64,000 nucleotides of DNA. It comes from Candidatus Saccharimonadota bacterium. Lineage in GTDB: Bacteria; Patescibacteriota; Saccharimonadia; Saccharimonadales; JACOTW01. Shown in pieces: positions 16,951 to 49,809 of the stretch (position 1 is the stretch's first letter; each line of letters starts with the position of its first letter). The position numbers and the translations under genes were made by a program. Under the pieces are notes generated by a model that worked only from the letters and a program-made list of their open reading frames with translations, was not told the origin of the DNA and ran no database searches. Location: positions 2,681 through 66,680 of the forward strand of contig JACOTW010000004.1 of the NCBI GenBank assembly GCA_016178135.1, given 5' to 3'.

Positions 16951-18051
16951 ATGCCGAAAATTATGGTAACAGGAGTGAATGGATTTGTGGGCAAGCATCT
17001 GGTCCGTGAACTAGTGGCTCGAAAATGTACGGTTACTGGAGTTGGTCGTGATAAAAACGTCGATAAATCTTTGGAGAATATCGTATCGAACTATTATTCG
17101 TGTGATTTAACTGATAAATCCGCAGTAGCAATACTCCCGCTTGATTCAATTGATGCTGTTATAAACCTGGCTGGCCTGGCAAGAGTCGGAGAGTCTTTTG
17201 ATAAGCCAGATTTTTACAAACATGTTAATGTTGGCGTTTTATCTGTTCTATCGGAACGTCTATTGGCTTTATCTTCTGGGGCTCGTGTGATTGCCGTTAG
17301 CACAGGGGCGGTTTATGATCCTAGGCAACCTATGCCACTTAACGAAGGATCTATTCTACTGGACTTACGCAAAATCGCCCGTTCCCAGGGCAAATCAGCT
17401 CGAGTTGAGAGTGGTTTGACTGAAGGAGAGGTAGCCTTAGCTACATCGAAAGAAGACAGACCGCTACCGCTTGAGATTAGTTGGTCTGGGGATGGGGGAG
17501 CTTTGCGTAAGTCCAGTCTAATAACTTCTGGTTCTCCTTACGCACTTAGTAAGATTGATATGGAAATAGTAGTTTCGGATTTGAGAAGTAGAGGTTTGGA
17601 TTGTATTATAGCGCGACCATTTAATCATATAGGGCCAGGCCAAGACATCGGCTTCTTAGTCCCCGATTTATACACCAAAATCCTAAGGGCTAATCAGTCT
17701 GGTGGCACAATAGCCGTAGGTGACTTAACGACCAGACGGGATTATACCGACGTCCGAGATGTGGTGCGAGCATATGCGGACCTCGCAGTCGCCCCCACAT
17801 TGCAACATGCTGTTTATAACGTTTGTAGTGGCCGTAGCGTGTCAGGGGGAAAGATCCTGGAATTACTACTAAAAGAAACTGGTCAAGTGGGGAAAATTAA
17901 TGTTACCACCGATTCTGCTTTTATAAGGCCGAATGATCCCGAGGACTTATTTGGCAGCAATGAGCGCCTGCATAATGAAACTGGCTGGCAACCAACAATC
18001 CCGCTTGAGCAGACAATTACAGATTTTGTGAACTCTAAAAGCACTTATTAA
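16951..18051 (+). CDS. NAD-dependent sugar-nucleotide reductase/epimerase (extended SDR; Rmd-like by context), carrying in-frame element B2
   Basis: 366 aa with the Rossmann motif VTGVNGFVGKHL, a VSTGAVY segment and the catalytic PYALSK (YxxxK). About 53 codons between them come from the family B element. Confidence 0.7.
   Translation: MPKIMVTGVNGFVGKHLVRELVARKCTVTGVGRDKNVDKSLENIVSNYYSCDLTDKSAVAILPLDSIDAVINLAGLARVGESFDKPDFYKHVNVGVLSVLSERLLALSSGARVIAVSTGAVYDPRQPMPLNEGSILLDLRKIARSQGKSARVESGLTEGEVALATSKEDRPLPLEISWSGDGGALRKSSLITSGSPYALSKIDMEIVVSDLRSRGLDCIIARPFNHIGPGQDIGFLVPDLYTKILRANQSGGTIAVGDLTTRRDYTDVRDVVRAYADLAVAPTLQHAVYNVCSGRSVSGGKILELLLKETGQVGKINVTTDSAFIRPNDPEDLFGSNERLHNETGWQPTIPLEQTITDFVNSKSTY
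17357..17517 (+). mobile_element. Family B element, copy B2, full length, inside a CDS and in frame
   Basis: It runs TACTGGACTTACGCAAAATCGCCCGTTCCCAGGG...GTAGCCTTAGCTAC...GGGGAGCTTTGCGTAAGTCCAGT. The host ORF stays open through it. Confidence 0.85.
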
Positions 18052-19099: not shown

Positions 19100-20197
19100 A
19101 TGAAAAAAATCGTTATTGACGCAAGAGAATTCGGAGGCACAGGCGGTGGGACATATCTCAAACATCTTCTTCAAAAACTTCAAGAAATAGACAATAATCA
19201 CAAATATGTGGTGCTACTAAAGCCCAAAGATATGGATAGCTGGAAGCCTGTTAATCGCAAGTTCGAAAAGCTACAATGTAATTACAAAGAGTTTACATTT
19301 GCCGAGCAAATTGGATTATTCAAACAACTTCGTAGTCTAAAAGCTGACCTCGTACACTTCCCTATGACCCAACAACCTGTGCTTTACCGCGGAAAAGTCG
19401 TAACAACAATAAACGATCTTACTACTGTGCGATTCCGTAATCCTAGCAAAAACTGGCTTATTTTTACTATAAAACGTTGGGTATATAAATGGGTTGCCTT
19501 GGTAGCTGCGCGAAAATCTAAAGCATTGTTAACATATACTGAATTCGTCAAAAACGATGTTGCCAAATTTGCCCACGTTAATAGTAGAAAAATTACCGTT
19601 ACTTATTTGGCGGCAGATAAAATTACCGAAGAACCTAGACCCGTAGAAAACTTGGAAAATGTGCAGTTTATTATGTACGTTGGGCGTCCCCAGCCACATA
19701 AAAACCTGGACCGTTTAGTAGAAGCTTTTACGTTGATAAAGCAAACCCACCCCGAGTTGAAATTAGTGCTGGCCGGCAAAAAAGATGTCTTGTACCGTCG
19801 CATAGCCACAAAGATTAAATACCGGAAAATTCCAGATATTATTTTTACTGGGTTTGTCGACGAAGGCCAATTACGTTGGCTGTACGAACATACAGCTTGC
19901 TATGTTTTTCCATCCTTGAGCGAGGGCTTTGGGCTGCCAGGCCTAGAGGCCATGAATCATGGAGCACCAGTAGTATCCAGCAACGCCACTTGTCTGCCAG
20001 AGGTCTATGGCGATGCTGCTGAATATTTCGACCCACTAAATGTTGAAGAAATGGCACAAGCTATAGCCAAAGTTATCGACAAACCAAAACGCCGCGATGA
20101 ATTAGTCGCCTTGGGCAAGAAACAAGCTAATAAATACTCCTGGCAGCGCATGGCCGAACAAACCCTGGCCGTCTACAAAGAAGCCTTAGGCGATTAA
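19100..20197 (+). CDS. GT4 glycosyltransferase
   Basis: 365 aa with SEGFGLPGLEAMNHGAPVVSS. Confidence 0.85.
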   Translation: MKKIVIDAREFGGTGGGTYLKHLLQKLQEIDNNHKYVVLLKPKDMDSWKPVNRKFEKLQCNYKEFTFAEQIGLFKQLRSLKADLVHFPMTQQPVLYRGKVVTTINDLTTVRFRNPSKNWLIFTIKRWVYKWVALVAARKSKALLTYTEFVKNDVAKFAHVNSRKITVTYLAADKITEEPRPVENLENVQFIMYVGRPQPHKNLDRLVEAFTLIKQTHPELKLVLAGKKDVLYRRIATKIKYRKIPDIIFTGFVDEGQLRWLYEHTACYVFPSLSEGFGLPGLEAMNHGAPVVSSNATCLPEVYGDAAEYFDPLNVEEMAQAIAKVIDKPKRRDELVALGKKQANKYSWQRMAEQTLAVYKEALGD

Positions 20198-20763
20198 GAA
20201 CTATGGTCTTTGAGCCATTTGGTAATCTCGTCGATGCCCAGGTGCTCAACAGCGACCTGAACTGCAAAGTCTTCGAGTTCACTTGGTTTGGCGGTAAGTT
20301 TTTTATGATTTCTCACTAAGAAAATTCCAACTATCGTAACGGCAGCCCGTTTATTGCCGTCAACGAAGGGATGATCACCAATTATATTTCGCAGATATAC
20401 CGCTGCTTTTTCTAAAACTGTGGGGTACTGTTCTGAGCCAAAAACTGTTTGCTGTGGGGCAGCCACAACAGACAATAACCGACCCTCGTCTCTAACGCCA
20501 TGAGAGCCCCCAAAATCTTCGATTATCCGGAAGTGCAACTTCAATATCTCTTCAGGGCTTAGATATAGCCCCCGCAAAACAAATTCCCGACTTTTCGAAT
20601 CACCCTCTTTGGCCCAAAACCGCCTTTCCTCGTTCAACGTATCTAAGGATATGTCTCTCTGGGAAAAGTCAGTTTTTGGCTCAAAGATCATTGCTTCAAA
20701 AACCTCAAAGATCATTGCTTCAAAAACCCACGAATTTGTTTTGCGGGGACTATAAGTTATCAT
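20194..20763 (-). CDS. doc: Doc/Fic-family toxin with a 63-codon in-frame family A insertion after codon 3
   Basis: It has the Doc-type Fic motif HPFVDGNKRAA. The N-terminus reads MIT-[YSPRKTNS...EFVLRGL]-YLSPEEILKLH. Its ATG overlaps the antitoxin stop (ATGA). Confidence 0.8.
   Translation of the reverse strand: MITYSPRKTNSWVFEAMIFEVFEAMIFEPKTDFSQRDISLDTLNEERRFWAKEGDSKSREFVLRGLYLSPEEILKLHFRIIEDFGGSHGVRDEGRLLSVVAAPQQTVFGSEQYPTVLEKAAVYLRNIIGDHPFVDGNKRAAVTIVGIFLVRNHKKLTAKPSELEDFAVQVAVEHLGIDEITKWLKDHSS
20564..20754 (-). mobile_element. Family A element, copy A3, subfamily 1, 191 bp (24-bp internal tandem duplication)
   Basis: Both TIRs are present. TCAAAGATCATTGCTTCAAAAACC is duplicated in tandem. 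The copy lies inside doc. Confidence 0.85.
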
Positions 20764-28390: not shown

Positions 28391-28579
28391 TATAGCCCCC
28401 GCAAAACAAATTCGTGGGTTTTTGAAGCAATGATCTTTGAGTCAAAAACTGACTTTTCCGAGAGAGACATATCCTTAGATACGTTGAACGAGGAAAGGCG
28501 GTTTTGGGCCAAAGAGGGTGATTCGAAAAGCCAAAGAGGGTGATTCGAAAAGTCGGGAATTTGTTTTGCGGGGGCTGTA
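28391..28579 (+). mobile_element. Family A element, copy A4, subfamily 1, 189 bp (22-bp internal tandem duplication)
   Basis: CCAAAGAGGGTGATTCGAAAAG is duplicated. The right TIR ends CTGTA and runs directly into a family B half element. Confidence 0.85.
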
Positions 28580-28663
28580 GCTAAGGCTACCTCTTCTTCA
28601 GTCAAACCACTCCCAACTCGAGCTGATTTGCCCTGGGAACGGGCGATTTTGGGTAAGTCCAGT
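28577..28663 (-). repeat. Family B half element (from the central palindrome to one TIR)
   Basis: GTAGCTAAGGCTACCTCTTCTTCAGTCAAACCACTCCCAACTCGAGCTGATTTGCCCTGGGAACGGGCGATTTTGGGTAAGTCCAGT is the reverse complement of the left half of B2. Confidence 0.8.
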
Positions 28664-28762
28664 TTATTCTCAATAGGTGCATTGACTAATGTAATGTAAA
28701 ACCCCACCCCGTAATAGCCCTCCATTATTATAAATACCCAGCTATAGCTTATTATATATAAT

Positions 28763-29403: not shown

Positions 29404-30036
29404 TTATTCTTCTGGGTTATTTTCAGAAGTGTTGGCCTCAGAAGATTTGATTTCGGGGGTGGTCGCTCCGGGGATGTTGGCCTCAGGGATGTTGGTTTCG
29501 AATGTGTTATTTTCGGAGGTGTTGGTAACTTCATCTACAGGTTTGTCTTTGGTACTAGAATCTTCATTTGCAGAATGGCCTTCACCGCCGGGTTTTAGGA
29601 CGATATGGCGGTCGCGGCCTTCACCTACTGATTCCGTTTCAAGGCCCTGTCCACTGGCTAGTTTGTGTACTACACGACGGTCAGCAGCATTCATGGGGGG
29701 CAAATTCATAGGCTTACCCGACTTCTTCACGGCGTTAACCCATTCCATGGCACGGTCTTCCAGGCGACTGGCGCGTTGCTTTTTATAATCTGCTACGTCT
29801 ATATTGACGCGAGTAAATTCAAATTCGTTACTTCTAAGCGCATTACTGACCATAAATTGCAGAGCACGCACCGTCTCACCACGCTGACCAATCAAAAATC
29901 CGTTCAAATGAGTACTCGGAACATTCAGTTCGATAACTTCATTATCTTCTGTAGTAGCATAAACATCCGTGTTCAGCCCAAAAAAAGACAATAGATCTTC
30001 AAGATATTTTTTGGCGTACTGAATAGATTCTTCCAT
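29404..30036 (-). CDS. jag: Jag/KhpB RNA-binding protein (Jag-N, KH, R3H) with a low-complexity C-terminal tail
   Basis: 210 aa in the conserved position after yidC. GFLIGQRGETVRALQ is KH-like and the NAADRRVVHKL segment is R3H-like. The tail SENNTFETNIPEANIPGATTPEIKSSEANTSENNPEE is encoded by ~15-bp periodic repeats. Confidence 0.8.
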   Translation of the reverse strand: MEESIQYAKKYLEDLLSFFGLNTDVYATTEDNEVIELNVPSTHLNGFLIGQRGETVRALQFMVSNALRSNEFEFTRVNIDVADYKKQRASRLEDRAMEWVNAVKKSGKPMNLPPMNAADRRVVHKLASGQGLETESVGEGRDRHIVLKPGGEGHSANEDSSTKDKPVDEVTNTSENNTFETNIPEANIPGATTPEIKSSEANTSENNPEE

Positions 30037-30992
30037 TACTTTTTCCTCCGCTTCTTTTTATAGGATGCTTTGGTTTTGTTGGGGTTTGTTGGTTTTTTAA
30101 TAACAACTTCACCATCAATAATATTTTTCTTGGGTGGCTGATCAGCTATTGCTTCCAGTTCTGTTTCGTCCTGCTTGAGCACACTAGATTGTTGGATGAA
30201 CGCAGTTAGGCCACTAATTAGCCAATACAAGCTAAGGGCTGAAGCAATATTGACGGTAAAGATAAAAATCATACCTGGTATAAGATATTTAGTATTCCGG
30301 CCGATAGCCGCATTAACTTCGGCCTGATCAGCCTCCTTGCCACCACCGGCATCTTTGAGTATTTGGCGTAATTTACGTCCATCTTTATTCTGTGGCATAA
30401 GTTGCTTGCTCTGATAATACTGGGCTACAGCACTGCCAATTACAATGAACATAGCCGGCCAGTATATACCACCATTCCCGAGTGCCGCTCTTTTAAGATC
30501 TATAACCCCAAATAGTGAGGCATCAAAACGGTTTATATCAACTGCCAGATCTTTCATCCAACCAAAATTATGTAACCAAGAATAAGAGAAGTCGATAATA
30601 GCTTGTGGATCATCAATAACCCGACGTAGTCCACTATAAAGCGCAATAAGAATAGGAATTTGCAAGATCAGAATACCGATTGATGAAAATGGACTAATCT
30701 GACGCTCTTTGTAAAGTTCCATGAGCATCATTGATTCTTTCTGACGATTACCCTTGGTGGCCTGTTTGATACGTTTTAACTCCGGCTGCAGTTCCCGCAT
30801 AGCCTTGGCGTGATGCAGTTGCTTCCTGATCAGTGGCCACATCAAAAGACGCACAACAATAGTGAATATAATAATAGCTAGGCCAAAATTATGTCCTGGC
30901 AGTATGGCATAGATAAAAACCAGCAGGTTGAAAATCGGTTGAATAATAAGAGTATTAAAAAAAGATGCGAACATAATTTCCCTTTCTTGCAT
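30036..30992 (-). CDS. yidC: Membrane protein insertase YidC
   Basis: 318 aa in the rnpA-yidC-jag order, multi-TM with a basic C-terminal tail KKKRRKK. The start may be the internal M at 30974. Confidence 0.85.
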   Translation of the reverse strand: MQEREIMFASFFNTLIIQPIFNLLVFIYAILPGHNFGLAIIIFTIVVRLLMWPLIRKQLHHAKAMRELQPELKRIKQATKGNRQKESMMLMELYKERQISPFSSIGILILQIPILIALYSGLRRVIDDPQAIIDFSYSWLHNFGWMKDLAVDINRFDASLFGVIDLKRAALGNGGIYWPAMFIVIGSAVAQYYQSKQLMPQNKDGRKLRQILKDAGGGKEADQAEVNAAIGRNTKYLIPGMIFIFTVNIASALSLYWLISGLTAFIQQSSVLKQDETELEAIADQPPKKNIIDGEVVIKKPTNPNKTKASYKKKRRKK

Positions 30993-31515
30993 CTATAATA
31001 TCACGCCTGTTGGGGAAAAAGCGTGAAAGCCCTATATATAGCCCCCGCAAAACAAATTCACGGCTTTTTGAACCGCCCTCTTCGGTCAAAAGCTGTTTTT
31101 CCTCACTCACCTTATCTAAGGATATGCTTCCCTCGGAAAAGCCAGTTTTTGACTCGAAGATCATCGGCTCCAAAACCACGTTGGCCTGCTTTAGCTGTGC
31201 CCTAACCAATCTATCAAGATCATCGAACGAAAGTTCAGCGACTTGCTCATGAAAAACGGTTATTACCAAATCGTATGGTTCAATTATTTTAGACTCGTAT
31301 TGACGAACGGCCTCATATAAACGACGACGAATACGATTACGCGTAACTGCCGATTTATTAACTTTTTTACTAACCACTATTGCTAAACGATATGTTTGCC
31401 GTCGATCATTGTGGGTATATTTTAGTGATGTCAGTGGACCACGTACAGTTTGCCCATGCCTGTAAACGTACTTTAGCGATCCGTAGCCATGAAAACGATG
31501 TTTGCGGCTAATCAT
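30955..31515 (-). CDS. rnpA: RNase P protein component, C-terminally extended by read-through into truncated element A5
   Basis: The first ~115 aa (RLAIVVSKKVNKSAVTRNRIRRRLYEA) look like a normal RnpA. A further 71 aa (LEPMIFESKTGFSEGS...EFVLRGLY...) are read from the family A element and the yidC leader. Confidence 0.8.
   Translation of the reverse strand: MISRKHRFHGYGSLKYVYRHGQTVRGPLTSLKYTHNDRRQTYRLAIVVSKKVNKSAVTRNRIRRRLYEAVRQYESKIIEPYDLVITVFHEQVAELSFDDLDRLVRAQLKQANVVLEPMIFESKTGFSEGSISLDKVSEEKQLLTEEGGSKSREFVLRGLYIGLSRFFPNRRDIIDARKGNYVRIFF
31037..31177 (-). mobile_element. Family A element, copy A5, subfamily 2, truncated (one TIR missing)
   Basis: One TIR is intact at 31037. The copy ends at ...GGCTCCAAAACC, about 25 bp short of the other TIR, where it is fused to rnpA coding sequence. 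Confidence 0.8.
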
Positions 31516-31583
31516 AAATACAGATTACAGGAAATATATGACAGATGACAGAAATTTATCATATTCAGATTTTGGGCGAATTA

Positions 31584-31721
31584 TTACGCAGACAAACGGT
31601 TGCGACCTTTTAGTCGGCGACGAGCTAAAACAGCACGACCAGCCTTGGTAGCCATTCGTTTCATAAAACCATGCTCACGAGCACGTTTGCGTTTTTTTGG
31701 TTGGTAGGTTCTTTTTGGCAT
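31584..31721 (-). CDS. rpmH: 50S ribosomal protein L34
   Basis: Own translation gives [45 protein letters not shown] (45 aa). It is below the ORF-track length cutoff and sits in the canonical position upstream of rnpA. Confidence 0.92.
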
Positions 31722-31760
31722 AGACTACAATTATCGCATAAAATCCTTGTTTTTCCAAGG

Positions 31761-31804
31761 AAACATTTTCGCTCGAGATAATTCACTCTGGGAACAGACG
31801 GTTT
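31761..31804 (-). repeat. Family B partial (variant half)
   Basis: AAACATTTTCGCTCGAGATAATTCACTCTGGGAACAGACGG matches the variant half seen at 51760-51800 and 53487-53515. Confidence 0.55.
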
Positions 31805-31968
31805 TACTGGACCTGTCGCAAAGCTCCCCCCATCCCGAGACCAATTCATCTCGGCTGGTAGCGGTCTGTCTTCTCTCGATGTAGCTAAGGCTACCTCCCC
31901 TTCAGTCAAACCACTCCCAACTCGAGCTGATTTAGCCTGGGAACGGGCGATTTTGCGATAGGTCCAGT
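31805..31968 (-). mobile_element. Family B element, copy B3 (TIR variant CTGGACCTGTCGCAAA), in the rpmH-dnaA spacer
   Basis: It runs TACTGGACCTGTCGCAAAGCTCCCCCCATCCCGAGACC...GTAGCTAAGGCTAC...GGGCGATTTTGCGATAGGTCCAGT. Confidence 0.8.
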
Positions 31969-32047
31969 TTATGTAAGTCGAGTTTACTCTTATTTGTTGG
32001 GCTTAATGAGTGAAATTAACAATATTTACCCCTCTATTATTTAGTGG

Positions 32048-32173
32048 TTATCCACGACTATATAACCATTTTCCACAGTTTTGCAGGGACGGTTTTTGGG
32101 TGTGTACAACTTTCTATCTGTTCGGGGTAGGTATCGTGATTGTAGGCTTTATTCTTTATAAAGTTGTGGAAAA
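32048..32173. promoter_or_regulatory. DnaA-box cluster upstream of dnaA (candidate oriC part or dnaA autoregulation)
   Basis: TTATCCACG lies at 32048-32056, TTTTCCACA at 32069-32077 and TGTGGAAAA at 32165-32173. Each has 1 mismatch to TTATCCACA. Confidence 0.55.
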
Positions 32174-32231
32174 GTCCTGGGTTATTGACTATACTGATTA
32201 TTGGCAAGATTGAGAAGTGTGAGGGAAACAT

Positions 32232-33599
32232 ATGCAGGATAGTTTGTGGCAAGCAGTGCTCGGCGAAATTGAACTTACTGTTTCAAGGGGTAGTTTTGTT
32301 ACGTGGTTTAAAAATACTCGTTTGCTACGACATAAAGACAACATTTTGGTGATTGGTGTGCAAAACGTCTTTGTTAAACAACAATTAGAAAGAAAATATA
32401 ATCAACTAATTGCCGATACACTTAAAAAGAACGGCGCGGAGCCAGAACGCATTGAATATAAGATTTACTCTGGGGCAACACTCCATAAAAAAACTGATGA
32501 TGACCCGATAGTCCTAGAATCCGCACAGTCTGGAGCTCGAACAGCTAATCGTCCCTCGCCAACAACACTAACTCATACTTATAGACAGGGACTCAATGAA
32601 CGTTACACGTTTGAAAACTTCGTAGTTGGGTCTGGTAATGAATTAGCCTATGCCGCTTGTCAAGCCATAGCTAGTAACCCTGGTACAAAATATAATCCTC
32701 TTTTTGTATATGGTGGGGTTGGTATCGGGAAAACTCATTTGATTCAGGCAGTCGGTAACGCCATAGCATCTAATAATCCTGGAGCGCATGTAGTTTATAT
32801 ATCTACCGAGCAATTTGTACAAGAATTTCTAGACGCTATACGTTACAAGAAAAATACTGATTTTGCGGGATATTACCGTAGTGCCGATGTTTTGATTGTT
32901 GATGATGTTCAAATTATAGCCGGAAAAGAAAAGACTCAAGAAGAATTTTTCCATACATTCAACGCCCTACATCAAGCCAATAAGCAAATAATAATTAGTA
33001 GTGATAGACCACCTAAAGATATACCAACACTAGAGGAACGCCTACGTAGTAGATTTGCATGGGGGATGAGTATAGATATGCAGACTCCGGATTTTGAAAC
33101 GCGCTGTGCTATTGTCCAGACCAAGGCCCACGCCCACTCTATAGACCTACCGCAGCCAGTAGTCGAGTTTCTGGCCAATCTTATTCAGACCAATATTCGA
33201 GAGCTTGAAGGGGCGCTAAATCAATTATTAGCATTTTGTGAAATGCGCGAACTAGATCCAGATATTAGTATAGCTATTGGTTTACTTGGTTCTGCAAAAA
33301 ATCGTCCAAAACACATTAACCCCAAACAAATTGTTGAACGTACCGCCAAATATTTTCATATACCGCTTGATGAAATTGTTGGCCCTAAGCGCGACAAAGA
33401 CATAGTAGTGCCACGTCAGATAGCAATGCACATATTACGAAGTGAGCTACATCTAAGTTTCCCTAAAATAGCCAGGGAGTTGGGCCGCAAAGACCATACA
33501 ACTGCTATTCATTCTGTAGAAAAAATAGATAAAGAGATGGCTCTAGATGCTGATATACGTTTAGCCATTAGTGAGATAAGGGCACACCTTTATGCATAA
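32232..33599 (+). CDS. dnaA: Chromosomal replication initiator DnaA
   Basis: 455 aa with Walker A GGVGIGKTHL, Walker B LIVDDVQ and a C-terminal DNA-binding signature KDHTTAIHSVEKI. Confidence 0.95.
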   Translation: MQDSLWQAVLGEIELTVSRGSFVTWFKNTRLLRHKDNILVIGVQNVFVKQQLERKYNQLIADTLKKNGAEPERIEYKIYSGATLHKKTDDDPIVLESAQSGARTANRPSPTTLTHTYRQGLNERYTFENFVVGSGNELAYAACQAIASNPGTKYNPLFVYGGVGIGKTHLIQAVGNAIASNNPGAHVVYISTEQFVQEFLDAIRYKKNTDFAGYYRSADVLIVDDVQIIAGKEKTQEEFFHTFNALHQANKQIIISSDRPPKDIPTLEERLRSRFAWGMSIDMQTPDFETRCAIVQTKAHAHSIDLPQPVVEFLANLIQTNIRELEGALNQLLAFCEMRELDPDISIAIGLLGSAKNRPKHINPKQIVERTAKYFHIPLDEIVGPKRDKDIVVPRQIAMHILRSELHLSFPKIARELGRKDHTTAIHSVEKIDKEMALDADIRLAISEIRAHLYA

Positions 33600-37486: not shown

Positions 37487-38758
37487 TTACTTTATCCTCG
37501 CGACTATATAATCACCGGCTCTACCATTATATGTAATTGAGGCAATTGCAGACGAAGCTTGTGGAACATGACCACCAAGAGAGGCAGATACTGAATCGCC
37601 CTTATAGCCCTGTTGACTGCCTGTAAAAATAAACGTATGTCCAATACCGGATCCCTTGCTATATATCAGTATATCTCCTGGCTGAAGCTGGGAAGTATCA
37701 CCAATATTTTCAATAATATAATACTTTTCCGTGTGATTTCTGACGTAGTTTTCCTGGATACTGGTACCTCGCTTTGGGTAGTTTGGATCAGCGCCAGTAG
37801 CGATCATCACAGTAGAAGTAAATACGCCACAATCACTATAGGGTTGGCTACCAGTACTGCCATTGTATTGTGGCATAGCGGTACGGTATTCTGGCTTGGC
37901 ATCATTTTGATCTGGGCCATGTCCTCCGGTTTCCCAAGCAAAATTTAGGGCAGTCTGCACGATACTGCCGGTAACCACCCCACCTGAACACTGTGTTGAA
38001 GAGTTGATGGCCGAGGTTGATGGTGGCGTACTGCTAGTAGGTGTGGGATATTTACCTCCGCCACTGGTAAAACCGCTAGATATCAGACTGTATACATTTT
38101 GCATATAATTCTGGGTTTCCGGTGGCGCCACGGATATAGGGGAAGTATCAGTAGTCTTTTTTGATACATTACCTCCCCCCCAGTTATAAACAGCTGCCTG
38201 AAAAATTAACGTTCCTCTGGCAAAAGGTGTGTTTATATCTCCTAAGGGGGTGTTAGTATCAACACCATTTGCGGCTGCCATATTGGCGGCGGCAAAAGCT
38301 GAATCGTAGATGTTCATCACATCGGCTTGACCATCGTTATTACCGTCAACCTTATAAGCCGCCCATGTACCAGGCATAAACTGGAATGGCCCACTTGCTC
38401 CTTTAGGTGATGTTGCCCAGCGCGAATCAAAAGGTGCCCAGTTATTGGCATGCTCCGACAGGAATAAGGACGCAATATAAGTAGGATTGGTTTTGTATGC
38501 GGCGGCGGCCTGGGCGAACAGTGTTTTGTGAGGCTCGGGAATAGCTCCCGATAGCTTACTGGTATCAACATCTACCATACAGCCCGTAGAGGTTTCTTCG
38601 ATATCGAAATAATATACGCCACTATTTAAGACGCGTTTTTGTTCAGGGCTTAGTGCTAAAACCGACAAGCCAGTTTGAGTGAAGCAAAATATAAATATAA
38701 TAGAAAACCAAAAAAGTTTTCTTGGGATACTATTCATAATTAGCCGTTTCTTTGCCAT
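37487..38758 (-). CDS. Secreted bifunctional peptidoglycan hydrolase (SLT lytic transglycosylase + NlpC/P60- or CHAP-like), VirB1-role
   Basis: ASGPFQFMPGTWAAY is an SLT motif. The C-terminal DCGVFTS (Cys) and GIGHTFIFTG (His) resemble a cysteine peptidase. The start is either 38758 or 38737; the track ORF to 38887 overlaps the upstream gene. Confidence 0.75.
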   Translation of the reverse strand: MAKKRLIMNSIPRKLFWFSIIFIFCFTQTGLSVLALSPEQKRVLNSGVYYFDIEETSTGCMVDVDTSKLSGAIPEPHKTLFAQAAAAYKTNPTYIASLFLSEHANNWAPFDSRWATSPKGASGPFQFMPGTWAAYKVDGNNDGQADVMNIYDSAFAAANMAAANGVDTNTPLGDINTPFARGTLIFQAAVYNWGGGNVSKKTTDTSPISVAPPETQNYMQNVYSLISSGFTSGGGKYPTPTSSTPPSTSAINSSTQCSGGVVTGSIVQTALNFAWETGGHGPDQNDAKPEYRTAMPQYNGSTGSQPYSDCGVFTSTVMIATGADPNYPKRGTSIQENYVRNHTEKYYIIENIGDTSQLQPGDILIYSKGSGIGHTFIFTGSQQGYKGDSVSASLGGHVPQASSAIASITYNGRAGDYIVARIK

Positions 38759-41093
38759 TAAATCCAATCGATGAACACGCTTGTCCGTTACCGGCATAGC
38801 AATCAGTAAGTGTGGATATGGAAGAATCAAAGACAAATATTGTGGTTCTTGCCCAGTTCTCATCACTAAAGTCATTACATTTCGCATTTATATAATTATC
38901 ATCAACAGGATTTATCTCCTCGGTCTTAACGGCATCCCATCCTTCAGGACCACGACTAATATCAACACCAAAACAATTCTTGGCCCTGTCAATGTACTGA
39001 TGTTTTTCGAATAATGGCGCCACAGTATTGGCATTATCGTAGGGATCTTCATATTTAGTATTATTGAGAATTTGTCGGGGTATCCCATACTCTGGAAAGC
39101 CCCAGTCATATGGTTGTTCGGTGGCTTTTACTTTGGGTGTCCATACCGAAAACAAATTAGATACTAGCTTTAAGGGGTTTAATATACTAACGGCTAAGTC
39201 GGATATATTGTTAATTGGGTTTTTGCTTGGCATCCGCATGGCTTTAGCTGTCAATGATCGGTAATCGTTCGGGTCAAATGTTCGGGTAAAAAAGCTCTTT
39301 TCTTGAAAATCGCTTAGATCCTGCTCGTTAAGTTCTTTGTTTATAGCGAGACTATCCGCTTTACTAAGCTCAACACCTCCCATTGATATAGCATTTAGAT
39401 TGCTAGATGCCCTGGCACCATAAGCAAGAAGATTCCCTCCTTGAGGTCCAGAAAAATATTTTACTGGGTCTTGGGTCAAGTGATCTATGGCGCCTTTTTC
39501 GATAAAATGTATAGCTGCTGAGATGGCAACCGTCGATACGGCAGCTTGGCTAGATTTTGCAGCCCAACCTCCAGGGCCTACGGCCAACAAGACCAGACCG
39601 GCAATGCCTTGAACGGCAAAACCAAGGGGACTGCATACGGCACCACTAACTCGATTATCGCCGATTCCATTAACAGTACTTACCACAGCGCTACTGGTAG
39701 TATTGATAGAAAATGCCTGTTTGTAGCCATCTTCAATATCTTCACCCTGACCGGGACCTTCTGTGGCCATGGCATTAAGTACCTTCCCTTCCCATACGGT
39801 TTTGCCATTCTCATCTTTGAGGCTCTCGGTAATATCTCCTATCTGATTCAAAGAAGGGACATCATTGTACTGTGTCTGGGAGCCTAATGCCTGCTTATCT
39901 GTGGACGCTATCATAGCCGGCACCACCACATTAGCATAATTTACTAGCGGTATAGCTTTTGAGATGCTCTTAACAACACAAAGACCAGCCGCTACGAATA
40001 GAGTGGCGTTTACTGCCTTTCTGTAGGGCGATACTGCCTCGTTTATACTGGTTTTGGCCTCCTCGTATTTAGTCTTTAGTTTTGCGCGCTTAGTTTCTTG
40101 GCGGCTTGTTTCTCTGGCAAGTCGAGCACTTCTAATGGATAATTTATTTTCTATGCCAGATGTTATTTTGCGCAAGGGGTGGAATAGACTGGGTAGATTA
40201 AAGTATTTTGACATAACACGTTTATTCATACCGTTAAGAATTTTACCGTCTTCTATATGTTCTAAGCTGGTAAAGGTCATTTGTCTCACACTACGATCGC
40301 TGTAATCACGCCAATTGATACTAAATTTATGGCCACCAGCATTCTCAACCGCACTCCCTGGTATTTTATGATCTTCAGCTATGGCGCGAATGGCTTCGGT
40401 TCGTGACATGCCTTGATATTTTGGATGTTTTGATATGTCTATTGATTGAGAAAGAGGCCGGCCAGTCTTTGGGTCTCTCTGAAACTCCACCCCAATATTC
40501 TTGAGTTGAGCTTCTACTCTCTTATAGACTCGGTTACCAGCATAGCCTACGCGAGTTTGTCCAACATCAGTAGTTAATCCTCCGCGGTAATGGATAAAAT
40601 GTTTCTTCAGGCGAGTTGAGATTGAACTGTCTGTTCCTCGGGAGAACTTACTAAGAATTTGTCCCAAATGGATTAGCTGAAAAGGTCCTTGTAAAATACT
40701 AAAAATTGCAAAAGTGGCGATTGCCCCGCCTAGACCTCCGCCAACAAGCCAACGTCCCTTACCGCCAATAGCCCCAACAATCTTGCCCGGCACATTATTG
40801 CCAGATCCAGAGGGGATTTTACCTGCCTGATGAGCCAGCTCGTTTACTAAGCCTAACTCTTTAGCGGAGGTGGTGTCTAGTGCATCGGAGGCACCGGATA
40901 TTCCGGATTCCGCGTTAGCTAGTTGTTCTGGGGTCTTGCCACGGCTAGGATGGTTTGGCGGCAGGTCGTTGTTACCGGCACTTGGAGCGGCAAAAGAATC
41001 CTCCAAATTATCAGCATCGGGCTTGTACCAACCTAGGTTGCCGTCATCGTAAGGACTATCCTGATCTGGTTTGTTATCAAGTTTAAGAGCCAT
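38730..41093 (-). CDS. Large membrane protein of the T4SS locus, function unknown
   Basis: 787 aa with an acidic or disordered N-terminus, TM segments near residues 115-135 and 355-395, and a Gly/Ala-rich hydrophobic region. I recognised no motif. Confidence 0.5.
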   Translation of the reverse strand: MALKLDNKPDQDSPYDDGNLGWYKPDADNLEDSFAAPSAGNNDLPPNHPSRGKTPEQLANAESGISGASDALDTTSAKELGLVNELAHQAGKIPSGSGNNVPGKIVGAIGGKGRWLVGGGLGGAIATFAIFSILQGPFQLIHLGQILSKFSRGTDSSISTRLKKHFIHYRGGLTTDVGQTRVGYAGNRVYKRVEAQLKNIGVEFQRDPKTGRPLSQSIDISKHPKYQGMSRTEAIRAIAEDHKIPGSAVENAGGHKFSINWRDYSDRSVRQMTFTSLEHIEDGKILNGMNKRVMSKYFNLPSLFHPLRKITSGIENKLSIRSARLARETSRQETKRAKLKTKYEEAKTSINEAVSPYRKAVNATLFVAAGLCVVKSISKAIPLVNYANVVVPAMIASTDKQALGSQTQYNDVPSLNQIGDITESLKDENGKTVWEGKVLNAMATEGPGQGEDIEDGYKQAFSINTTSSAVVSTVNGIGDNRVSGAVCSPLGFAVQGIAGLVLLAVGPGGWAAKSSQAAVSTVAISAAIHFIEKGAIDHLTQDPVKYFSGPQGGNLLAYGARASSNLNAISMGGVELSKADSLAINKELNEQDLSDFQEKSFFTRTFDPNDYRSLTAKAMRMPSKNPINNISDLAVSILNPLKLVSNLFSVWTPKVKATEQPYDWGFPEYGIPRQILNNTKYEDPYDNANTVAPLFEKHQYIDRAKNCFGVDISRGPEGWDAVKTEEINPVDDNYINAKCNDFSDENWARTTIFVFDSSISTLTDCYAGNGQACSSIGFNGKETANYE

Positions 41094-41115
41094 TCACCTA
41101 CCTTATGTCTATCAT

Positions 41116-41274
41116 ACACGAATTTCGCACTTTTCCATCGCTCCAGATGACACCTGACAGGCTACAGTCGCTCATTCCTCACTCAACATAACAATGGTTA
41201 TGTCTCCCTCGGATTGAACAACCGTAACCAGCCAGTTGCCACCTGGCATCAATGGCTAAGTGCGAAACTCGTGT
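41116..41274 (+). mobile_element. Family C palindromic TIR element, copy C1, 159 bp
   Basis: It is bounded by ACACGAATTTCGCACTTTTCCATCGC and GGCTAAGTGCGAAACTCGTGT. It fills the virB4-downstream gene spacer and abuts the virB4 stop. Confidence 0.8.
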
Positions 41275-43187
41275 CATACACCAGGAGTTAGTCGGTTGCT
41301 AAGATCAATAGTGCCTTGTGGTTGATCAATAGCCTCCTGTCGCTCTATTTGTCGGACTTGTTCAGGATTGGTAGTAATTAGTCCGGTTTCTGTTGGGCTG
41401 GCGGTAATTTGGATATGAACGTGGTTTTGACCGGCAAAGAATAAGCCCTGTCCTACCGGAAATTGACTAAGCCGTTTTTTTTCCTCACTGGTTAACTTAA
41501 ACACATCCGCCAGTACGTCTACGGCCGATGGAGACTGCTTGAGGAGTATTTGCATTGAAGCATTAGCCACAATTGCCCGTCCCATACGGCTACCCATAAA
41601 ATCTTCTACGTCTTGGGTTATGGTTGTAATGCCCAGATTGTATTTTCGTGATCTTTTAGCTAGAGAGAATAAGAAATTAGCCGAATCTTCATACTTCATA
41701 AGTTGCCAGGCTTCATCAACCACCAAGATGCGTTTTTTCTTTTCGGCTTTCGTCTTATTCCAGATAAAATTCAAGACTATATACATGGCTACCGGACGGA
41801 GTTCGTCTTCTAGGTCACGAATATTGAAAACAACCATAGGATTATTTATGTCTATATTGGATTGTTGAGAAAAAATACCGGCAAAGGTACCCGTAGTGTA
41901 TTTTCGCAAACGTTGAGCCAGCTGCGGGCCCGTTCCTCCCATATGAAGTAATGTATCGTAGAGATCGTTTATTGTGGGCGGTTGGGACCTGTGCGTTAAC
42001 GGATCATTGGTGATACCGGCCTTGGCGTAGGTTTCAATAAGCGCCGCGTCTAAATCGGCCTCTTCTACGGGGGATAGAGCGGGCATGGCAGCTGCGGTAC
42101 CGCCCATCATTTGGGCTTGAGCACCGCCCATCATTAAGCGTAATAGACCATGTAGTGTAATAAGATTGCTTCTAAGAGCATTGTCGGCTTCTTCGGTATC
42201 AACGACTTGAGGCAAATCGAAAGGATTAATTCGCGTGGCAGAGCTTAGGCTCAAACGCACATAAGCACCGCCCACGGCTTCAGCCATGCGCTGGTATTCA
42301 TTTTCTGGGTCAATAATAAACACGTCAATGCCAAACATCATGCTACGTAAAACCTCGAGTTTGACAGTAAACGATTTACCAGCACCGGCTTTGGCAAAAA
42401 CCACCGAGTTACCATTTTCCAGCGTAAAGCGATCAAAAATAACCAACCCAGAATTATGCATATTAATGCCGTACAAAATACCGTTATCCTGACTTAGATC
42501 GGCTGATGTGAACGGGAAACTAGTACTAAGTGCTCCGGTAGAGAAATTGCGTTTGATTTGCAACTGGTCGGTAAATTGCGGGACAGTGCTATTAAAGCCT
42601 TGTTCTTGTTGAGAAGAGGCTGCTTTGGAATAAATCAGTTGTTGTCCCAAAATCGATTCTATTTTATGGGAAACAAACTCGAGCTCATCAATATTGTTGG
42701 CATAAATTGTGAAGTACAATCCAAAACGGAAAAAACGTTCCTCGCCAACCTGTAATTTGTCCCGCATTTCCTCGGCATCTGTGATAGCCGCCTGTTTGCC
42801 TGGATCGCGAACTCGACCTTTTTCGGAATCAATCATGATGCCCGCTTCCAGCTGACCGACCTTCTTACGTAAATTTTCTAATACTACCTGGCTCTCAACA
42901 GGATATATGACCATCGACAAATCGATTATTTCGTCAATATTAACCATGCTACTCAACCATCCGGTAAATATCTGTCGGGGGTATCCATAAACATAATATG
43001 TTCTGGCGTAGCGGGTGCCGAGCTGGAAGTGTGTGCCAAAAAACTCTATTGAACTTGGGGCAATAAAATCACGTAGAGCGGTAATGCCTTTTTGGAAAGC
43101 AGTATTGACTTCCACTTCTTCTCTGGCACGTTGTTGCTGGGCAAGAGTTACTGGATCTAGCGGTGGCTTCTTTTTAAATAAGGCCAT
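41274..43187 (-). CDS. virB4: VirB4/TrbE/PrgJ-type T4SS ATPase
   Basis: 637 aa with Walker A AKAGAGKSF and Walker B ILVVDEAWQL. The YARTYYVYGYPRQIFTGWL region is typical of VirB4-family proteins. Confidence 0.85.
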   Translation of the reverse strand: MALFKKKPPLDPVTLAQQQRAREEVEVNTAFQKGITALRDFIAPSSIEFFGTHFQLGTRYARTYYVYGYPRQIFTGWLSSMVNIDEIIDLSMVIYPVESQVVLENLRKKVGQLEAGIMIDSEKGRVRDPGKQAAITDAEEMRDKLQVGEERFFRFGLYFTIYANNIDELEFVSHKIESILGQQLIYSKAASSQQEQGFNSTVPQFTDQLQIKRNFSTGALSTSFPFTSADLSQDNGILYGINMHNSGLVIFDRFTLENGNSVVFAKAGAGKSFTVKLEVLRSMMFGIDVFIIDPENEYQRMAEAVGGAYVRLSLSSATRINPFDLPQVVDTEEADNALRSNLITLHGLLRLMMGGAQAQMMGGTAAAMPALSPVEEADLDAALIETYAKAGITNDPLTHRSQPPTINDLYDTLLHMGGTGPQLAQRLRKYTTGTFAGIFSQQSNIDINNPMVVFNIRDLEDELRPVAMYIVLNFIWNKTKAEKKKRILVVDEAWQLMKYEDSANFLFSLAKRSRKYNLGITTITQDVEDFMGSRMGRAIVANASMQILLKQSPSAVDVLADVFKLTSEEKKRLSQFPVGQGLFFAGQNHVHIQITASPTETGLITTNPEQVRQIERQEAIDQPQGTIDLSNRLTPGV

Positions 43188-43230
43188 TAAACGTCTCCCC
43201 TGGAGTTATTTCTGACATCTGATCCACACA

Positions 43231-43397
43231 TATAGCCCCCGCAAAACAAATTCGGGGGTTTTGGAGCCGATGATCTTCGAGTCAAAAACTGGCTTTTCCG
43301 AGGGAAGCATATCATTAGATAAGGTGAGTGAGGAAAGACAGCTTTTGACCGGAGAGGGCGGTTCAAAAAGCCGTGAATTTGTTTTGCGGGGGCTATA
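43231..43397 (+). mobile_element. Family A element, copy A6, subfamily 2, 167 bp, inside the T4SS operon
   Basis: Both TIRs are intact. It lies between 43477-44388 and virB4. Confidence 0.85.
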
Positions 43398-43476
43398 GTT
43401 ACGAATTTTATACCTAGTCGTTTATACCAGATTGCAGCTGAATGAGCGAAACTTGTGATAGGTAGTGGGTCGTGAT

Positions 43477-44388
43477 TCACTGTAATTCCTTGTCTAGGTT
43501 GGGCTGTGGGGCTAGCCCTTCGCCCTTTACTACTACGGGTGCCGTGAGGTCATCAAAATTCTTGAGTTGTTGGCGCGTTGCAGTTTCTGGGTTGTAGGTA
43601 TCATAAAACAGCTCAATCAATTCCTGGGTATCTAGCGGAATACCCTGGATTCCGCATTGTTGCATACCACCCAGCACAGACTGTACGCGATTACGTAGTT
43701 CGTCTTTGGCCTTGTTGAGATCGGCCTCATTGATCACTACATGTTGTTCTTTGGAATTAAATAGACTGGCTAGTCCAGAAAAGAAATTTTTACTGGAAGT
43801 TAGGGCGCGCTGCACATCAAGAGTTGAATAATAAGGGATAATTATATAAAAGCGCTTGTCCATGATGTTGGTTTGTTGGGCTAGATCACTCATAAACGTC
43901 AGATAATCTTCCATGAGAAGTGCCAAGAGCATATTGTCATGTTCAGAACGTATTTTATCAAGTTTTTCAATGTATGGACCTAAATCAACCTTTTGCGAAC
44001 GAATAAATATCTGGATCGGAAAATATAAAGAATTCAAAAAACCCTGATAGCTGTACTCAACGGCTTCACGTTCCTGGGGGCTCATAAGGTCAAAATTGAT
44101 AGATTTTACCATTACGACCGACCTGAATGAGCCATCATTCATTATTACAATACCATCACGGATTTCGGCTATTTGCAGGCTGTTTTGGGTACTGTTTGGA
44201 TTGGTTTTGACGGGTACGGTCTGTCGCGTTACTGGCGATCCACCAATCATGGGGGTTTGTTGGGAATTTGCCGCTGACAGGGGTGGATAGCCAGCACCGC
44301 CAGCAACCGCCGGCTGCGGCCCATAGGGCCCATAACCGTTTTCCGGAAGTTGTGGCGTCTGTGATTGATTATATGAATTTGGGTCCAT
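43477..44388 (-). CDS. Hypothetical T4SS-locus protein (P/Q/G-rich N-terminus)
   Basis: The ATG at 44388 (MDPNSYNQSQ...) is preferred. The track ORF start at 44550 lies inside element C4. The core reads DGSFRSVVMVKSINFDLMSPQEREAVEYSYQGFLNSL. Confidence 0.5.
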   Translation of the reverse strand: MDPNSYNQSQTPQLPENGYGPYGPQPAVAGGAGYPPLSAANSQQTPMIGGSPVTRQTVPVKTNPNSTQNSLQIAEIRDGIVIMNDGSFRSVVMVKSINFDLMSPQEREAVEYSYQGFLNSLYFPIQIFIRSQKVDLGPYIEKLDKIRSEHDNMLLALLMEDYLTFMSDLAQQTNIMDKRFYIIIPYYSTLDVQRALTSSKNFFSGLASLFNSKEQHVVINEADLNKAKDELRNRVQSVLGGMQQCGIQGIPLDTQELIELFYDTYNPETATRQQLKNFDDLTAPVVVKGEGLAPQPNLDKELQ

Positions 44389-44435
44389 TAGCAAATTTGT
44401 CCACCCTTTAATTTGTGGTCGTGTATAGATTGAAT

Positions 44436-44590
44436 AGGACTTTCGCACTTTTTCATCGCAACAGACCACAGCTGATTGACTACAAATTGTCTGTATTTTC
44501 TCGGTGTACCTATTGGTACTCCTCAAGAATCCAAACAGTTTTCGTACCAATCATCTCTACTCTGTTATCAATGCAAAAGTGCGAAAGTTC
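44436..44590 (+). mobile_element. Family C element, copy C4 (divergent core)
   Basis: Its ends are GGACTTTCGCACTTTTTCATCGC and GCAAAAGTGCGAAAGTTC. Confidence 0.65.
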
Positions 44591-44657
44591 TATTAAAGTA
44601 TAGCCGAAACAAACGTAACCGGAAAGCCCGTGGGGAATTTTGTGACTCTTACACTTA

Positions 44658-44800
44658 ATCACGAGTTTCGGACTTAGCCGTCGATGCCAGGTTGCACCAA
44701 ACCGAGCGAAAACAGTTTTATCTGGCGGAGAGGTAGCTGTAGCTATAGTCCCCGCATATGCGGGATGAACTGGGGCGATGGAAAAGTCCGAAACTCGTGT
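44658..44800 (-). mobile_element. Family C element, copy C3, chimeric (interior carries family B and family A fragments)
   Basis: The ends are ATCACGAGTTTCGGACTTAGCCGTCGATGCCAGG and GCGATGGAAAAGTCCGAAACTCGTGT. The interior GAGCGAAAACAGTTTTATC is identical to 435-453 of B1. CTATAGTCCCCGCA is a family A TIR stub. Confidence 0.7.
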
Positions 44801-44803
44801 TAA

Positions 44804-45892
44804 TTACCGAAGGGATATTACTACTTCATCTTGGGGTGGTTCTTTTTTGTTGGCTTTATCAGCCTGACGAGCTATGGTTGCTATGTTTAGGTCGTCATTG
44901 TTGGCAAATTCTATTATGGATGAGTTGGTAACGGTGCCAGAAGCGGTCTTGGATGGCTTATTTTGTTCAGAAAGGGGTTTTATAGTGCGCATGTGCCCAT
45001 AGGCAGGGCTGGGCTTACTGTTCATATGAATCTTCTCAAGAATTTTTTGGTCGTCGGCCGTAGGTTGAGCTTGGGTGTGTGATGCAGCATCGTCAGCCCC
45101 AGGAATGACTACCTGCGACTTTTGAAAAACAGCCTGTCCTGCAGGGATTTTGGCGGTGCTTGCAGGGTCGCCACGCATAAACCAGTAGTCTGGCGGTGGG
45201 CCGTTGGCAATGGGATTATTGTTGTTTTGTAGTTGAGTAAATTGTTTCATTTGGTCGGTGATTTGCTGTTTATGTGTCTGTGCCGAGGCGGCAATCATCT
45301 GATCAAAATGTTGTGCAGTTGGACTGGTATGTTCGTCTAATATGTCATCAGTGTCATGGATATCCACAGCTACGACATTTCGTGGCAAGCTAGATAAGGC
45401 AACAAGCCGATCAGATTCCCCGATGATCGTTTCATAGCCTGGCTGGCTATATAGATTTACATTAACATTTTTAACAGCCCAACCGCGACTATCAATGGTG
45501 TTGGCAAGAGCCTCTAGGCGACTGCGAACTTCTGTTTCGGAAAAATTTTTAGACAGTATTCTTTCAATTTTTTTCGGGACGGTTATAGTTACCATTTCTT
45601 TAACGCCACTTTGATTCCAGATGCGACGGTGAGGTTTTAACATAAAGCGAATCTTAGCTAGTGCCCAAATCTCTGTTGGCTGATCTCGACTCCATGGCCA
45701 GGCAAAAAAACCAGTAATTATTATAAAGGGTAGAAATATAAACGTTATATAGCCAACACCTCTACTGATAGCCAAAAAGCTCAAATAAGCACAAATAGCG
45801 GCGATTGCCGCGTAAATAAACTGCTTAAGTGTTAGTGGCCCGAGAAATTTGTCCTCTGCCTCAATATCTTGTAGTACTTTATATGTTGCCAT
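44804..45892 (-). CDS. PrgI-family / VirB3-like T4SS membrane protein
   Basis: 362 aa. The N-terminus MATYKVLQDIEAEDKFLGPLTLKQFIYAAIAAICAYL followed by two TM segments matches the PrgI-family pattern. Confidence 0.55.
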   Translation of the reverse strand: MATYKVLQDIEAEDKFLGPLTLKQFIYAAIAAICAYLSFLAISRGVGYITFIFLPFIIITGFFAWPWSRDQPTEIWALAKIRFMLKPHRRIWNQSGVKEMVTITVPKKIERILSKNFSETEVRSRLEALANTIDSRGWAVKNVNVNLYSQPGYETIIGESDRLVALSSLPRNVVAVDIHDTDDILDEHTSPTAQHFDQMIAASAQTHKQQITDQMKQFTQLQNNNNPIANGPPPDYWFMRGDPASTAKIPAGQAVFQKSQVVIPGADDAASHTQAQPTADDQKILEKIHMNSKPSPAYGHMRTIKPLSEQNKPSKTASGTVTNSSIIEFANNDDLNIATIARQADKANKKEPPQDEVVISLR

Positions 45893-45898
45893 ATGTAT

Positions 45899-48547: not shown

Positions 48548-48673
48548 TTTCTATTGTATAAGCAGATTAAATAAATCGCTATACTGGATTTATGCAAAAT
48601 CGCTCATTCCTAGAGTAAATCGGTCATCAATGTCTAAGGTGTGCAATGCGTGTACGATAAGCTGCGCATTAGT

Positions 48674-49807: not shown

Positions 49808-49809
49808 AA

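Follow-up and report, generated by a model that had tools for sequence, protein, structure and literature searches.

Why the gene for RnpA, an essential subunit of RNase P, should run on past its normal end and into its downstream neighbour yidC is the question raised by a stretch of 64,000 nucleotides (nt), here called the window, from contig JACOTW010000004.1 of a Candidatus Saccharimonadota metagenome-assembled genome (MAG). The rnpA open reading frame (ORF) of this window specifies 186 amino acids (aa), the last of which are read from a copy of a repeated element, termed family A below, and from the spacer in front of yidC. This tail very probably has a two-step structural origin, in which a miniature inverted-repeat transposable element (MITE) landed at the rnpA stop codon and 26 nt at one end of the inserted copy are absent from the assembly. 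The first step is documented by the locus in a related strain; the second is plain in the deposited sequence, and it is its authenticity that has to be inferred. The choice for the second step lies between a mis-join made during assembly and a real deletion, but the tail is a non-functional by-product either way, not an evolved domain or regulatory device.

The first part of the ORF is an ordinary RnpA. The PF00825 (Ribonuclease_P) profile covers residues 4-111, corresponding to profile positions 3-108/109 (68.5 bits against a cut-off of 22.3; E 6e-19), and the RNR-motif residues R59, N60, R61, R63 and R64 are invariant across 74 aligned RnpA sequences. An AlphaFold2 model built on RnpA homologues has a predicted local distance difference test (pLDDT) score above 90 over residues 1-113, with helices at 11-20, 56-71 and 97-110. 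The gene also stands in the order expected for rnpA, rpmH-rnpA-yidC-jag beside dnaA, with rpmH as the first gene. The original prediction, made from the letters of the window, had described an RnpA-like part of normal length (about 115 aa), which agrees with a profile match ending at residue 111 and a fold ending at about residue 113. After ...LVRAQLKQANVV (residue 114) there are 72 further residues: the element accounts for 46 of them (LEPMIFESK...EFVLRGLY), and the spacer between rnpA and yidC, together with the opening bases of yidC, accounts for 26. The read-through had thus been recognised correctly, although the earlier counts of 71 codons in all and 25 beyond the element were each off by one. 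The predicted tail, which includes the peptide TGFSEGSISLDK, has a pLDDT below 50 over most of its length (residues 136-175 and 182-186), and the model places secondary structure nowhere in it. At the composition of the window, 71 codons in a row would be free of stops with a probability of about 0.02, and no Rfam match was obtained up to E = 1 across 30700-32300.

A tail of this length sets the window apart from other RnpA proteins. A search found 1,936 homologues, and tail lengths were taken from a sample of 73 of these, in which 3-28 residues (median 12) follow the conserved KQA, compared with 75 in the window RnpA; none of the sampled proteins has a tail longer than 28 residues. The best 120 homologues are 110-139 aa long, so that the 186 aa found here fall outside the usual range of about 110-140 aa, and the excess consists wholly of repeat and spacer sequence. 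The product stands in the public record as NCBI protein MBI1857036.1, from an 88.8-kb MAG contig.

Family A, from which most of the excess is read, is present in the window in eight copies belonging to two subfamilies (A1 and A2) that are about 80% alike. A canonical copy is small and non-coding, measures about 167 nt from TA to TA and lies among flanking sequences unrelated to those of the other copies. The copies carry perfect terminal inverted repeats (TIRs) of 23-24 nt, reaching about 27 nt in canonical copies, whose ends read TA-TAGCCCCCGCAAAACAAATTC..., and each has the form TA-TAG...CTA-TA, which is a TA target-site duplication. An intact element makes one long, near-perfect hairpin (-96 kcal/mol, z = -11), with the first 24 bp of the stem uninterrupted and made of both TIRs. 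The tail DNA (31033-31177) is 93-95% identical to the copies at 43257-43397 and 11607-11747 (a further comparison gives 97.9% for the first of these) and about 80% identical to the second subfamily, whereas the chance expectation for a 51-mer match of this DNA is 0. The match to sibling copies bears out the claim that the tail is repeat-derived. A scan allowing up to 4 mismatches found 13 TIRs in the window, two of which (31037-31059, beside yidC, and 48674-48696) have no detected partner; a third, at 52449-52471, is also without a match, its partner being too degenerate.

No transposase was detected by tblastn in the 64-kb window, and no autonomous partner of family A was found there. The 23-nt TIR does, however, occur in MAGs of other Patescibacteria, and on a Kuenenbacteria MAG contig (L020) it marks the left terminus of a TA-flanked element about 1.1 kb in length. 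This element codes for a winged-helix, helix-turn-helix ORF (PF13551, HTH_29) and a DDE_3 transposase (PF13358, E 7e-19), the latter ending in ...EFVLR and its stop codon inside the right TIR. Because the TIR is held in common with a DDE_3 element and the copies show the TA duplication, family A is taken to be a non-autonomous MITE of an IS630-family insertion sequence (IS). The same comparison accounts for the stop-free frame of the element, since the TIR encodes the transposase C-terminus EFVLR and the palindromic symmetry of the element mirrors it. Most family-A copies have one forward and usually two reverse open frames whether or not a gene enters them, and the same stop-free frame occurs at non-coding copies too. 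Exact copies of the 23-nt TIR were seen in MAGs labelled Saccharibacteria, Minisyncoccia, Kuenenbacteria and other Patescibacteria (L013-L021). One of these (L016), a MAG from a different species cluster, holds an A2 copy that is only a few positions off the window copies. Similarity of this kind hints that the element has recently spread horizontally. Among the papers searched, none mentions both MITEs and Saccharibacteria.

The state of the locus before any loss of sequence can be read from two assemblies of a strain that is 98.7% identical over the locus (L001, GCA_040960765.1, and L002, GCA_040960095.1). Both hold an intact element at the identical site, after ...GCCAACGT, and their RnpA is 126 aa long, ending IAPAKQIRGFWSR (in full, ...QANVIAPAKQIRGFWSR) at a TGA that lies 13 codons into the element. 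When the element and one TA are removed, the sequence reads GCC AAC GTT ATA TAG, which would close a 115-aa RnpA at ...QANVI. Alignment of RnpA orthologues had been put forward as the means of locating the ancestral stop, and it can be placed, by inference, at this ...QANVI-TAG; the shortest orthologues, which are 114 aa long and end in QII, NII or KII, agree with such a native end. All close relatives carry an element at this site. Only L022, which has an 80% identical RnpA and a 52-nt spacer, free of any element, between rnpA and yidC, has the site empty, and its locus is too distant to serve as an empty site at the level of single bases.

In the first step, an IS630-type MITE entered the TA in ...GTT ATA TAG, two codons before the rnpA stop, in an ancestor of this Saccharibacteria lineage. 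The native stop was thereby replaced by the in-element TGA 13 codons on, an arrangement kept in the 98.7%-identical strain. It was thus the arrival of the MITE, and not the truncation, that displaced the native stop. The original prediction was right that this stop had been lost; in the relatives with an intact element, RnpA already ends at the in-element TGA. Elsewhere in the window, a GT4-type glycosyltransferase ORF (10289-11623, plus strand) ends in the intact copy at 11581-11747 with the tail GIAPAKQIRGFWSR and a stop. These are the same 13 element residues and the same TGA (11621-11623) as in the RnpA of the related strain, and the native end of the glycosyltransferase would have been ...TGN-TAG.

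The second step concerns the rnpA-side end of the element. The canonical sequence ...GCCAACGT-TATAGCCCCCGCAAAACAAATTCGGG-GGTTTTGGAGCC is reduced in the window to ...GCCAACGT followed directly by GGTTTTGGAGCC; the alternative to this junction is ...GCCAACGT followed by TATAGCCCCC. A deficit of about 25 bp of the TIR had been claimed, and alignment with the intact insertion sets it at exactly 26 nt. There is no microhomology at the junction. The absence of the TA and outer TIR in this assembly shifts the reading frame, as 26 is not divisible by 3, and the ORF then runs through the element's sole stop-free forward frame and the spacer before halting 20 nt inside yidC. It is the 26-nt loss that takes the frame past the in-element TGA into the open frame, and the 72-codon read-through depends on this loss only.

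How far the extended ORF reaches into yidC depends on where yidC begins. The YidC orthologue of L022 begins MFASFF, has an in-frame TAG four codons upstream and aligns from residue 7 of the longest yidC ORF of the window, so that the choice left open earlier between positions 30992 and 30974 falls on the ATG at 30974 as the likely start. With this start the overlap with the extended rnpA ORF is 20 nt and not 38 nt, the latter figure being correct for the longest ORF only. That the extended ORF crosses the start region of yidC, with its stop at 30955-30957, stands as predicted.

A second assembly of the strain bears directly on the junction. The sister MAG JACPYE (JACPYE010000004.1, GCA_016196105.1) shows no single-nucleotide polymorphism (SNP) against positions 1-55794 of the window and differs from it by four indels, each at one end of a family-A copy and with a breakpoint 26-29 nt from the element terminus (Table 1). 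The four remaining copies are canonical and the same in both MAGs, and the copies in other assemblies (L001, L002, L016 and L023) are all canonical. The 26-nt loss is seen in the window assembly only, and whereas the 13-codon fusion is reproducible (L001, L002), the 72-codon fusion is not. The strain was found at 100% identity in SRR12113416 and SRR12113417 (PRJNA640378). Exact-protein look-ups with the 186-aa ORF and with L34 returned no Logan contig over the rnpA junction, the Logan contigs of the strain ending within the TIRs, and metagenome contigs of the Joint Genome Institute (JGI), scanned first for an rnpA anchor and separately for the core of the element, gave no match.

The supplementary files of He et al. 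2021 list JACPYE as a Saccharibacteria MAG from groundwater site Pr1. In that study, MEGAHIT assemblies were made per filter and the contigs then joined by the IDBA-UD scaffolder. The tree of He et al. 2021 gives JACPYE a zero-distance sister MAG from site Pr7, which is probably the source of the window. The two MAGs, SNP-free over about 56 kb, would then probably come from two separate groundwater sites in California, Lower Lake (Pr7) and Calistoga (Pr1). He et al. 2021 report little species overlap between sites, and the pair could represent the same clone at both sites or cross-sample carry-over.

Table 1. Coordinates of the features discussed, with the condition of the family-A copies in the window and, where given, in the sister MAG JACPYE.
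Feature	Position in window	Strand	Basis or state in window	State in JACPYE
rnpA ORF	30955-31515	minus	186 aa; present in the window sequence as predicted	
rnpA core (RnpA fold), codons 1-114	31174-31515	minus	PF00825 and AlphaFold2 model	
rnpA tail, 72 codons and TAA stop	30955-31173	minus	Translation; TAA at 30955-30957	
Truncated family-A copy in rnpA (element position 27 to end, plus TA)	31033-31177	minus	Repeat alignment; 26 nt lost	97 nt lost; RnpA cut after residue 89, helices 90-110 gone
Junction without 26 nt (TA target copy and outer TIR, TATAGCCCCCGCAAAACAAATTCGGG)	31177/31178		Alignment with L001, L002 and L003	
Surviving yidC-side TIR of rnpA copy	31037-31059	plus	TIR scan; partner missing	
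In-element TGA ending RnpA in relatives	31161-31163	minus	Out of frame in window	
Inferred ancestral rnpA stop TAG (GTT ATA TAG)	31032-31034	minus	Out of frame in window; TA duplication at all copies and at the L020 IS	
yidC	30036-30974	minus	PF02096; likely ATG 30974, 312 aa; longest ORF from 30992	
jag/khpB	29404-30036	minus		
rpmH (ribosomal protein L34, 45 aa)	31584-31721	minus	ORF; PF00468 on identical gene in L001 and L003	
dnaA	32232-33599		Divergent from the rpmH-rnpA-yidC-jag row	
Closest intact sibling of rnpA copy, subfamily A1	43231-43397	plus		
Intact A1 copy	11581-11747	plus	Gives glycosyltransferase gene its last 13 codons and stop	
A2 copy c20k (20.7 kb)	20564-20754	minus	TIR present, with 24-nt tandem duplication at inner TIR boundary	94 nt lost
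A2 copy c28k (28.5 kb)	28391-28579	plus	TIR present, with 22-nt tandem duplication at inner TIR boundary	114 nt lost
A2 copy c48k (48.8 kb)	48674-48812	plus	Right TIR and 58 nt of flank lost	Both present, with 12-nt duplication
Canonical A2 copy	196-362	plus	Canonical	Same as window

A mis-join at a repeat end is slightly more likely than the organism's true sequence as the cause of the 26-nt loss, with a probability of roughly 0.45, and in that case the true RnpA would end 13 codons into the element. Discrepancies between the MAGs are confined to the ends of the most similar repeats, and a duplication of 12-24 nt in one MAG abuts the boundary that is deleted in the other; such pairing of duplication and deletion at the same boundary is the mark of mis-merged contig ends. 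The window itself is without real sequence at 48.8 kb, and a scaffolder had been applied to the contigs of another assembler. The JACPYE version of rnpA, in which helices 90-110 of an essential protein are removed, makes an assembly error at the rnpA junction likely. However, several observations weigh against a mis-join. De Bruijn assemblers invent no junction k-mers, so that the error must stem from the scaffolding step. Although the two assemblies are independent, they are aberrant at the same four repeat ends and identical at the others, which points to something specific to these loci; the length of exact repeat shared is no predictor, as two ends sharing 101 nt are fine and ends sharing 69-97 nt fail; and no single k-mer size yields the sizes seen (losses of 26, 94, 97, 97 and 114 nt; duplications of 12, 22 and 24 nt). 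Furthermore, both MAGs are without the rnpA TIR and share its inner breakpoint together with three SNPs in the element, which would fit a real 26-nt deletion in both populations as well.

Such a deletion, real and recent, is possible though somewhat doubtful. The 186-aa RnpA would then be made, with an intact cofactor core and a disordered tail that is tolerated or degraded, and ribosomes finishing rnpA would move across the start of yidC, with termination 20 nt into that gene. The common inner breakpoint and the recurrence of the same aberrant ends, which are not those with the longest shared repeats, argue for a real event, as does the presence of the junction in the deposited assembly, whose ORF NCBI took as RnpA; the RnpA core fold is, in the model, untouched. 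There is also a precedent in the indel that joined enhC to QMITE2 in Coxiella burnetii Dugway, adding 33 residues (PMC5896051). Yet the allele is present in one assembly only and the SNP-free sister MAG carries another, microhomology is absent, and the lost part is precisely the TA target copy and TIR that are repeated at every copy end. Moreover, a junk tail on a highly expressed essential protein, overlapping the start of the next essential gene, should be selected against, and no such tail is met in the 73 sampled homologues. A sequencing error at the 31170-31200 junction had been named at the outset as one way in which the read-through could prove false; an error there is a live possibility, perhaps the likeliest, and the twin MAG differs at exactly this point.

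The shared position of the breaks can also be explained by making the inner TIR boundary a genuine breakage hot spot, at which losses and duplications are real alleles that coexist or arise rapidly and were sampled differently by the two assemblies. All eight non-canonical states (8/8; four loci in two MAGs) break 26-29 nt from the element end, compared with 0 SNPs in about 56 kb, and the inner end of the deletions is fixed while the outer end varies (0, 40, 58, 65 or 71 nt of flank). The intact element folds as a near-perfect hairpin with an uninterrupted 24-bp TIR stem, and possible causes are cleavage of the hairpin formed by the TIR stem and core loop or aberrant action of a transposase. 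However, we know of no mechanism by which a Tc1/IS630-type TIR would be broken at its inner edge. One of the alleles would destroy the RnpA fold, the copies in four other assemblies are canonical, and mis-merged contig ends explain the pattern more cheaply, which makes a hot spot unlikely. If it were true, one-sided deletions and short tandem duplications would outpace point mutation (four loci against 0 SNPs in about 56 kb, across two groundwater sites) and gene ends, including the 3' end of the essential rnpA, would be repeatedly remodelled; one candidate mechanism would be a nuclease that cuts the hairpin at the point where its perfect TIR stem passes into the imperfect core.

That the long tail is ancestral or functional, either as a lineage-specific C-terminal domain of RnpA or as an evolved device coupling translation to yidC, is highly improbable. 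The frame does stay open for 72 codons (p about 0.02), and the ORF ends close enough to the yidC start for a geometry compatible with coupling. However, the openness of the frame is accounted for by palindromic symmetry and the TIR-encoded EFVLR, the sequence is the generic open frame of the element as present at non-coding copies, and the tail is predicted to be disordered. It is carried by none of the 73 sampled homologues, RnpA of the nearest relatives reaches only 13 codons into the element before its stop, and even the twin assemblies do not have the tail in common. The tail lengths of 3-28 residues in the sampled homologues led to an ancestral long tail being rejected, and no orthologue with the same tail but without similarity to the repeat was met among the homologues examined. 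The earlier suggestion that an essential RNase P subunit carries a repeat-derived tail therefore finds no sign in its favour as far as function is concerned, the tail being predicted disordered and missing from sampled homologues. Should the tail be genuine, it would amount to a lesion that is tolerated or does mild harm, and read-through past the yidC start with termination 20 nt on could either aid or hinder initiation at yidC. A related candidate was also discarded, namely that the left-TIR hairpin (GCCCCCG...CGGGGGUUUU, -13.1 kcal/mol) acted as a terminator between rnpA and yidC and was lost adaptively, since its z is only -1.65; a terminator scan called six sites, identical for the window and L001, and the TIR was not among them.

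The insertion of a MITE on the rnpA stop codon is a real and ordinary effect on a gene 3' end and a fresh instance of a known phenomenon, whereas the 72-codon read-through, which no second assembly reproduces, could be an assembly error. What is robust is that an IS630-type MITE family spread in Patescibacteria provides host genes with short tails and with stop codons. A genuine junction would add a small example of MITEs reshaping the 3' ends of even essential genes in the tiny, tightly packed genomes of the Candidate Phyla Radiation (CPR), and would offer a natural test of how far a junk tail is tolerated on RnpA and an overlap at the start of yidC. If it is a mis-join, a single repeat end has given rise to three rnpA gene models (110, 126 and 186 aa) in public MAGs, the 110-aa and 186-aa versions both being labelled RnpA by NCBI, and MITE ends in scaffolded short-read MAGs should be treated as unreliable.

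Other parts of the window and its relatives also carry marks of family A and of further repeats. In a Fic-domain ORF (20194-20763, minus strand; Fic residues 67-149), about the first 65 residues are encoded by the open frame of the copy at 20564-20754. A short ORF upstream of it ends in an ATGA that overlaps the Fic start, and the 94-nt deletion in JACPYE fuses the two into 228 aa. The interval from the PaaX gene to a cutinase gene, which lies within about 1 kb in the 98.7%-identical strain (L001 8780-9700), measures about 7.7 kb in the window, where a pair of family-A copies in inverted orientation, at 20.6 kb and 28.4 kb, marks its ends, which suggests a MITE-bounded insertion or rearrangement. 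On the 2.3-kb contig of L002, the sequence beyond the intact rnpA element (about 1530-2273) is unrelated and repeat-rich where yidC would be expected, and this break reflects either a genuine rearrangement or a chimera formed at the MITE.

A second repeat family, whose copies diverge more (75-97% identity), is present in either orientation at 387-548, 17354-17514, 28576-28666, 31802-31972, 50594-50756, 51668-51834 and 53394-53536; one of its copies sits immediately upstream of rpmH, and a different one directly adjoins the family-A copy at 28.5 kb. A third family, of about 165 nt, is represented at 41114-41283 and 53972-54143 (the best two, 90-94% identical) and more weakly at 44435-44513. It flanks a gene cluster at 38730-51113 of conjugation or type IV secretion-like character, as judged by the Pfam marks of the sister contig, which is identical there; the cluster has a TraG/VirB4-like P-loop ATPase, a TraC-like protein, PrgI, TrbL_3 and six T4SS_pilin paralogues. 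Three direct repeats at 56056-56701, ending TCGAATCCCTCC...CCGCCA, resemble tRNA 3' ends with an encoded CCA. Finally, a 92-nt direct repeat (92% identical, 162 nt apart) at 4854-5107, inside a 694-aa ORF (3285-5369), is probably an internal protein repeat.

Among known systems, the element is most readily compared with MITEs of the IS630 family (Tc1/mariner superfamily), with which it shares the TA duplication, TIRs of about 25 nt, short length, lack of a transposase and presence in many copies. It differs in that its interior is an almost perfect palindrome over the whole length and in that the window, at 64 kb, has no autonomous partner. Stop-free palindromic repeats inside genes are also known as Rickettsia palindromic elements (RPEs), which are translated as extra peptide segments. 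RPE insertions are in-frame, internal and conserved across species, whereas the segment in the window is a terminal tail produced by a frameshift and lacks conservation even across the twin assemblies. Errors made in scaffolding short-read MAGs offer a likeness of another kind, as here too discrepancies fall only at near-identical repeat ends within otherwise 100% identical sequence, joins show duplications and deletions of tens of bases, and a scaffolder was run on the contigs of another assembler; unlike such errors, the same ends fail in both assemblies and the sizes fit no single k-mer size.

A further parallel is provided by QMITE1 and QMITE2 of C. burnetii, which overlap the 3' ends of functional genes and give them their last codons and stop (PMC5896051). 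In the Dugway strain, the indel between enhC and a QMITE2 copy led to a C-terminal extension of 33 residues, and the stable stem of a Coxiella MITE has been discussed as a possible RNase III substrate (PMC5896051). The QMITEs belong to other element families and another host phylum, and the Coxiella cases come from finished genomes of cultured strains, whereas the read-through in the window is one MAG junction contradicted by its twin. In both systems, however, the element supplies the 3' ends of genes with codons and a stop.

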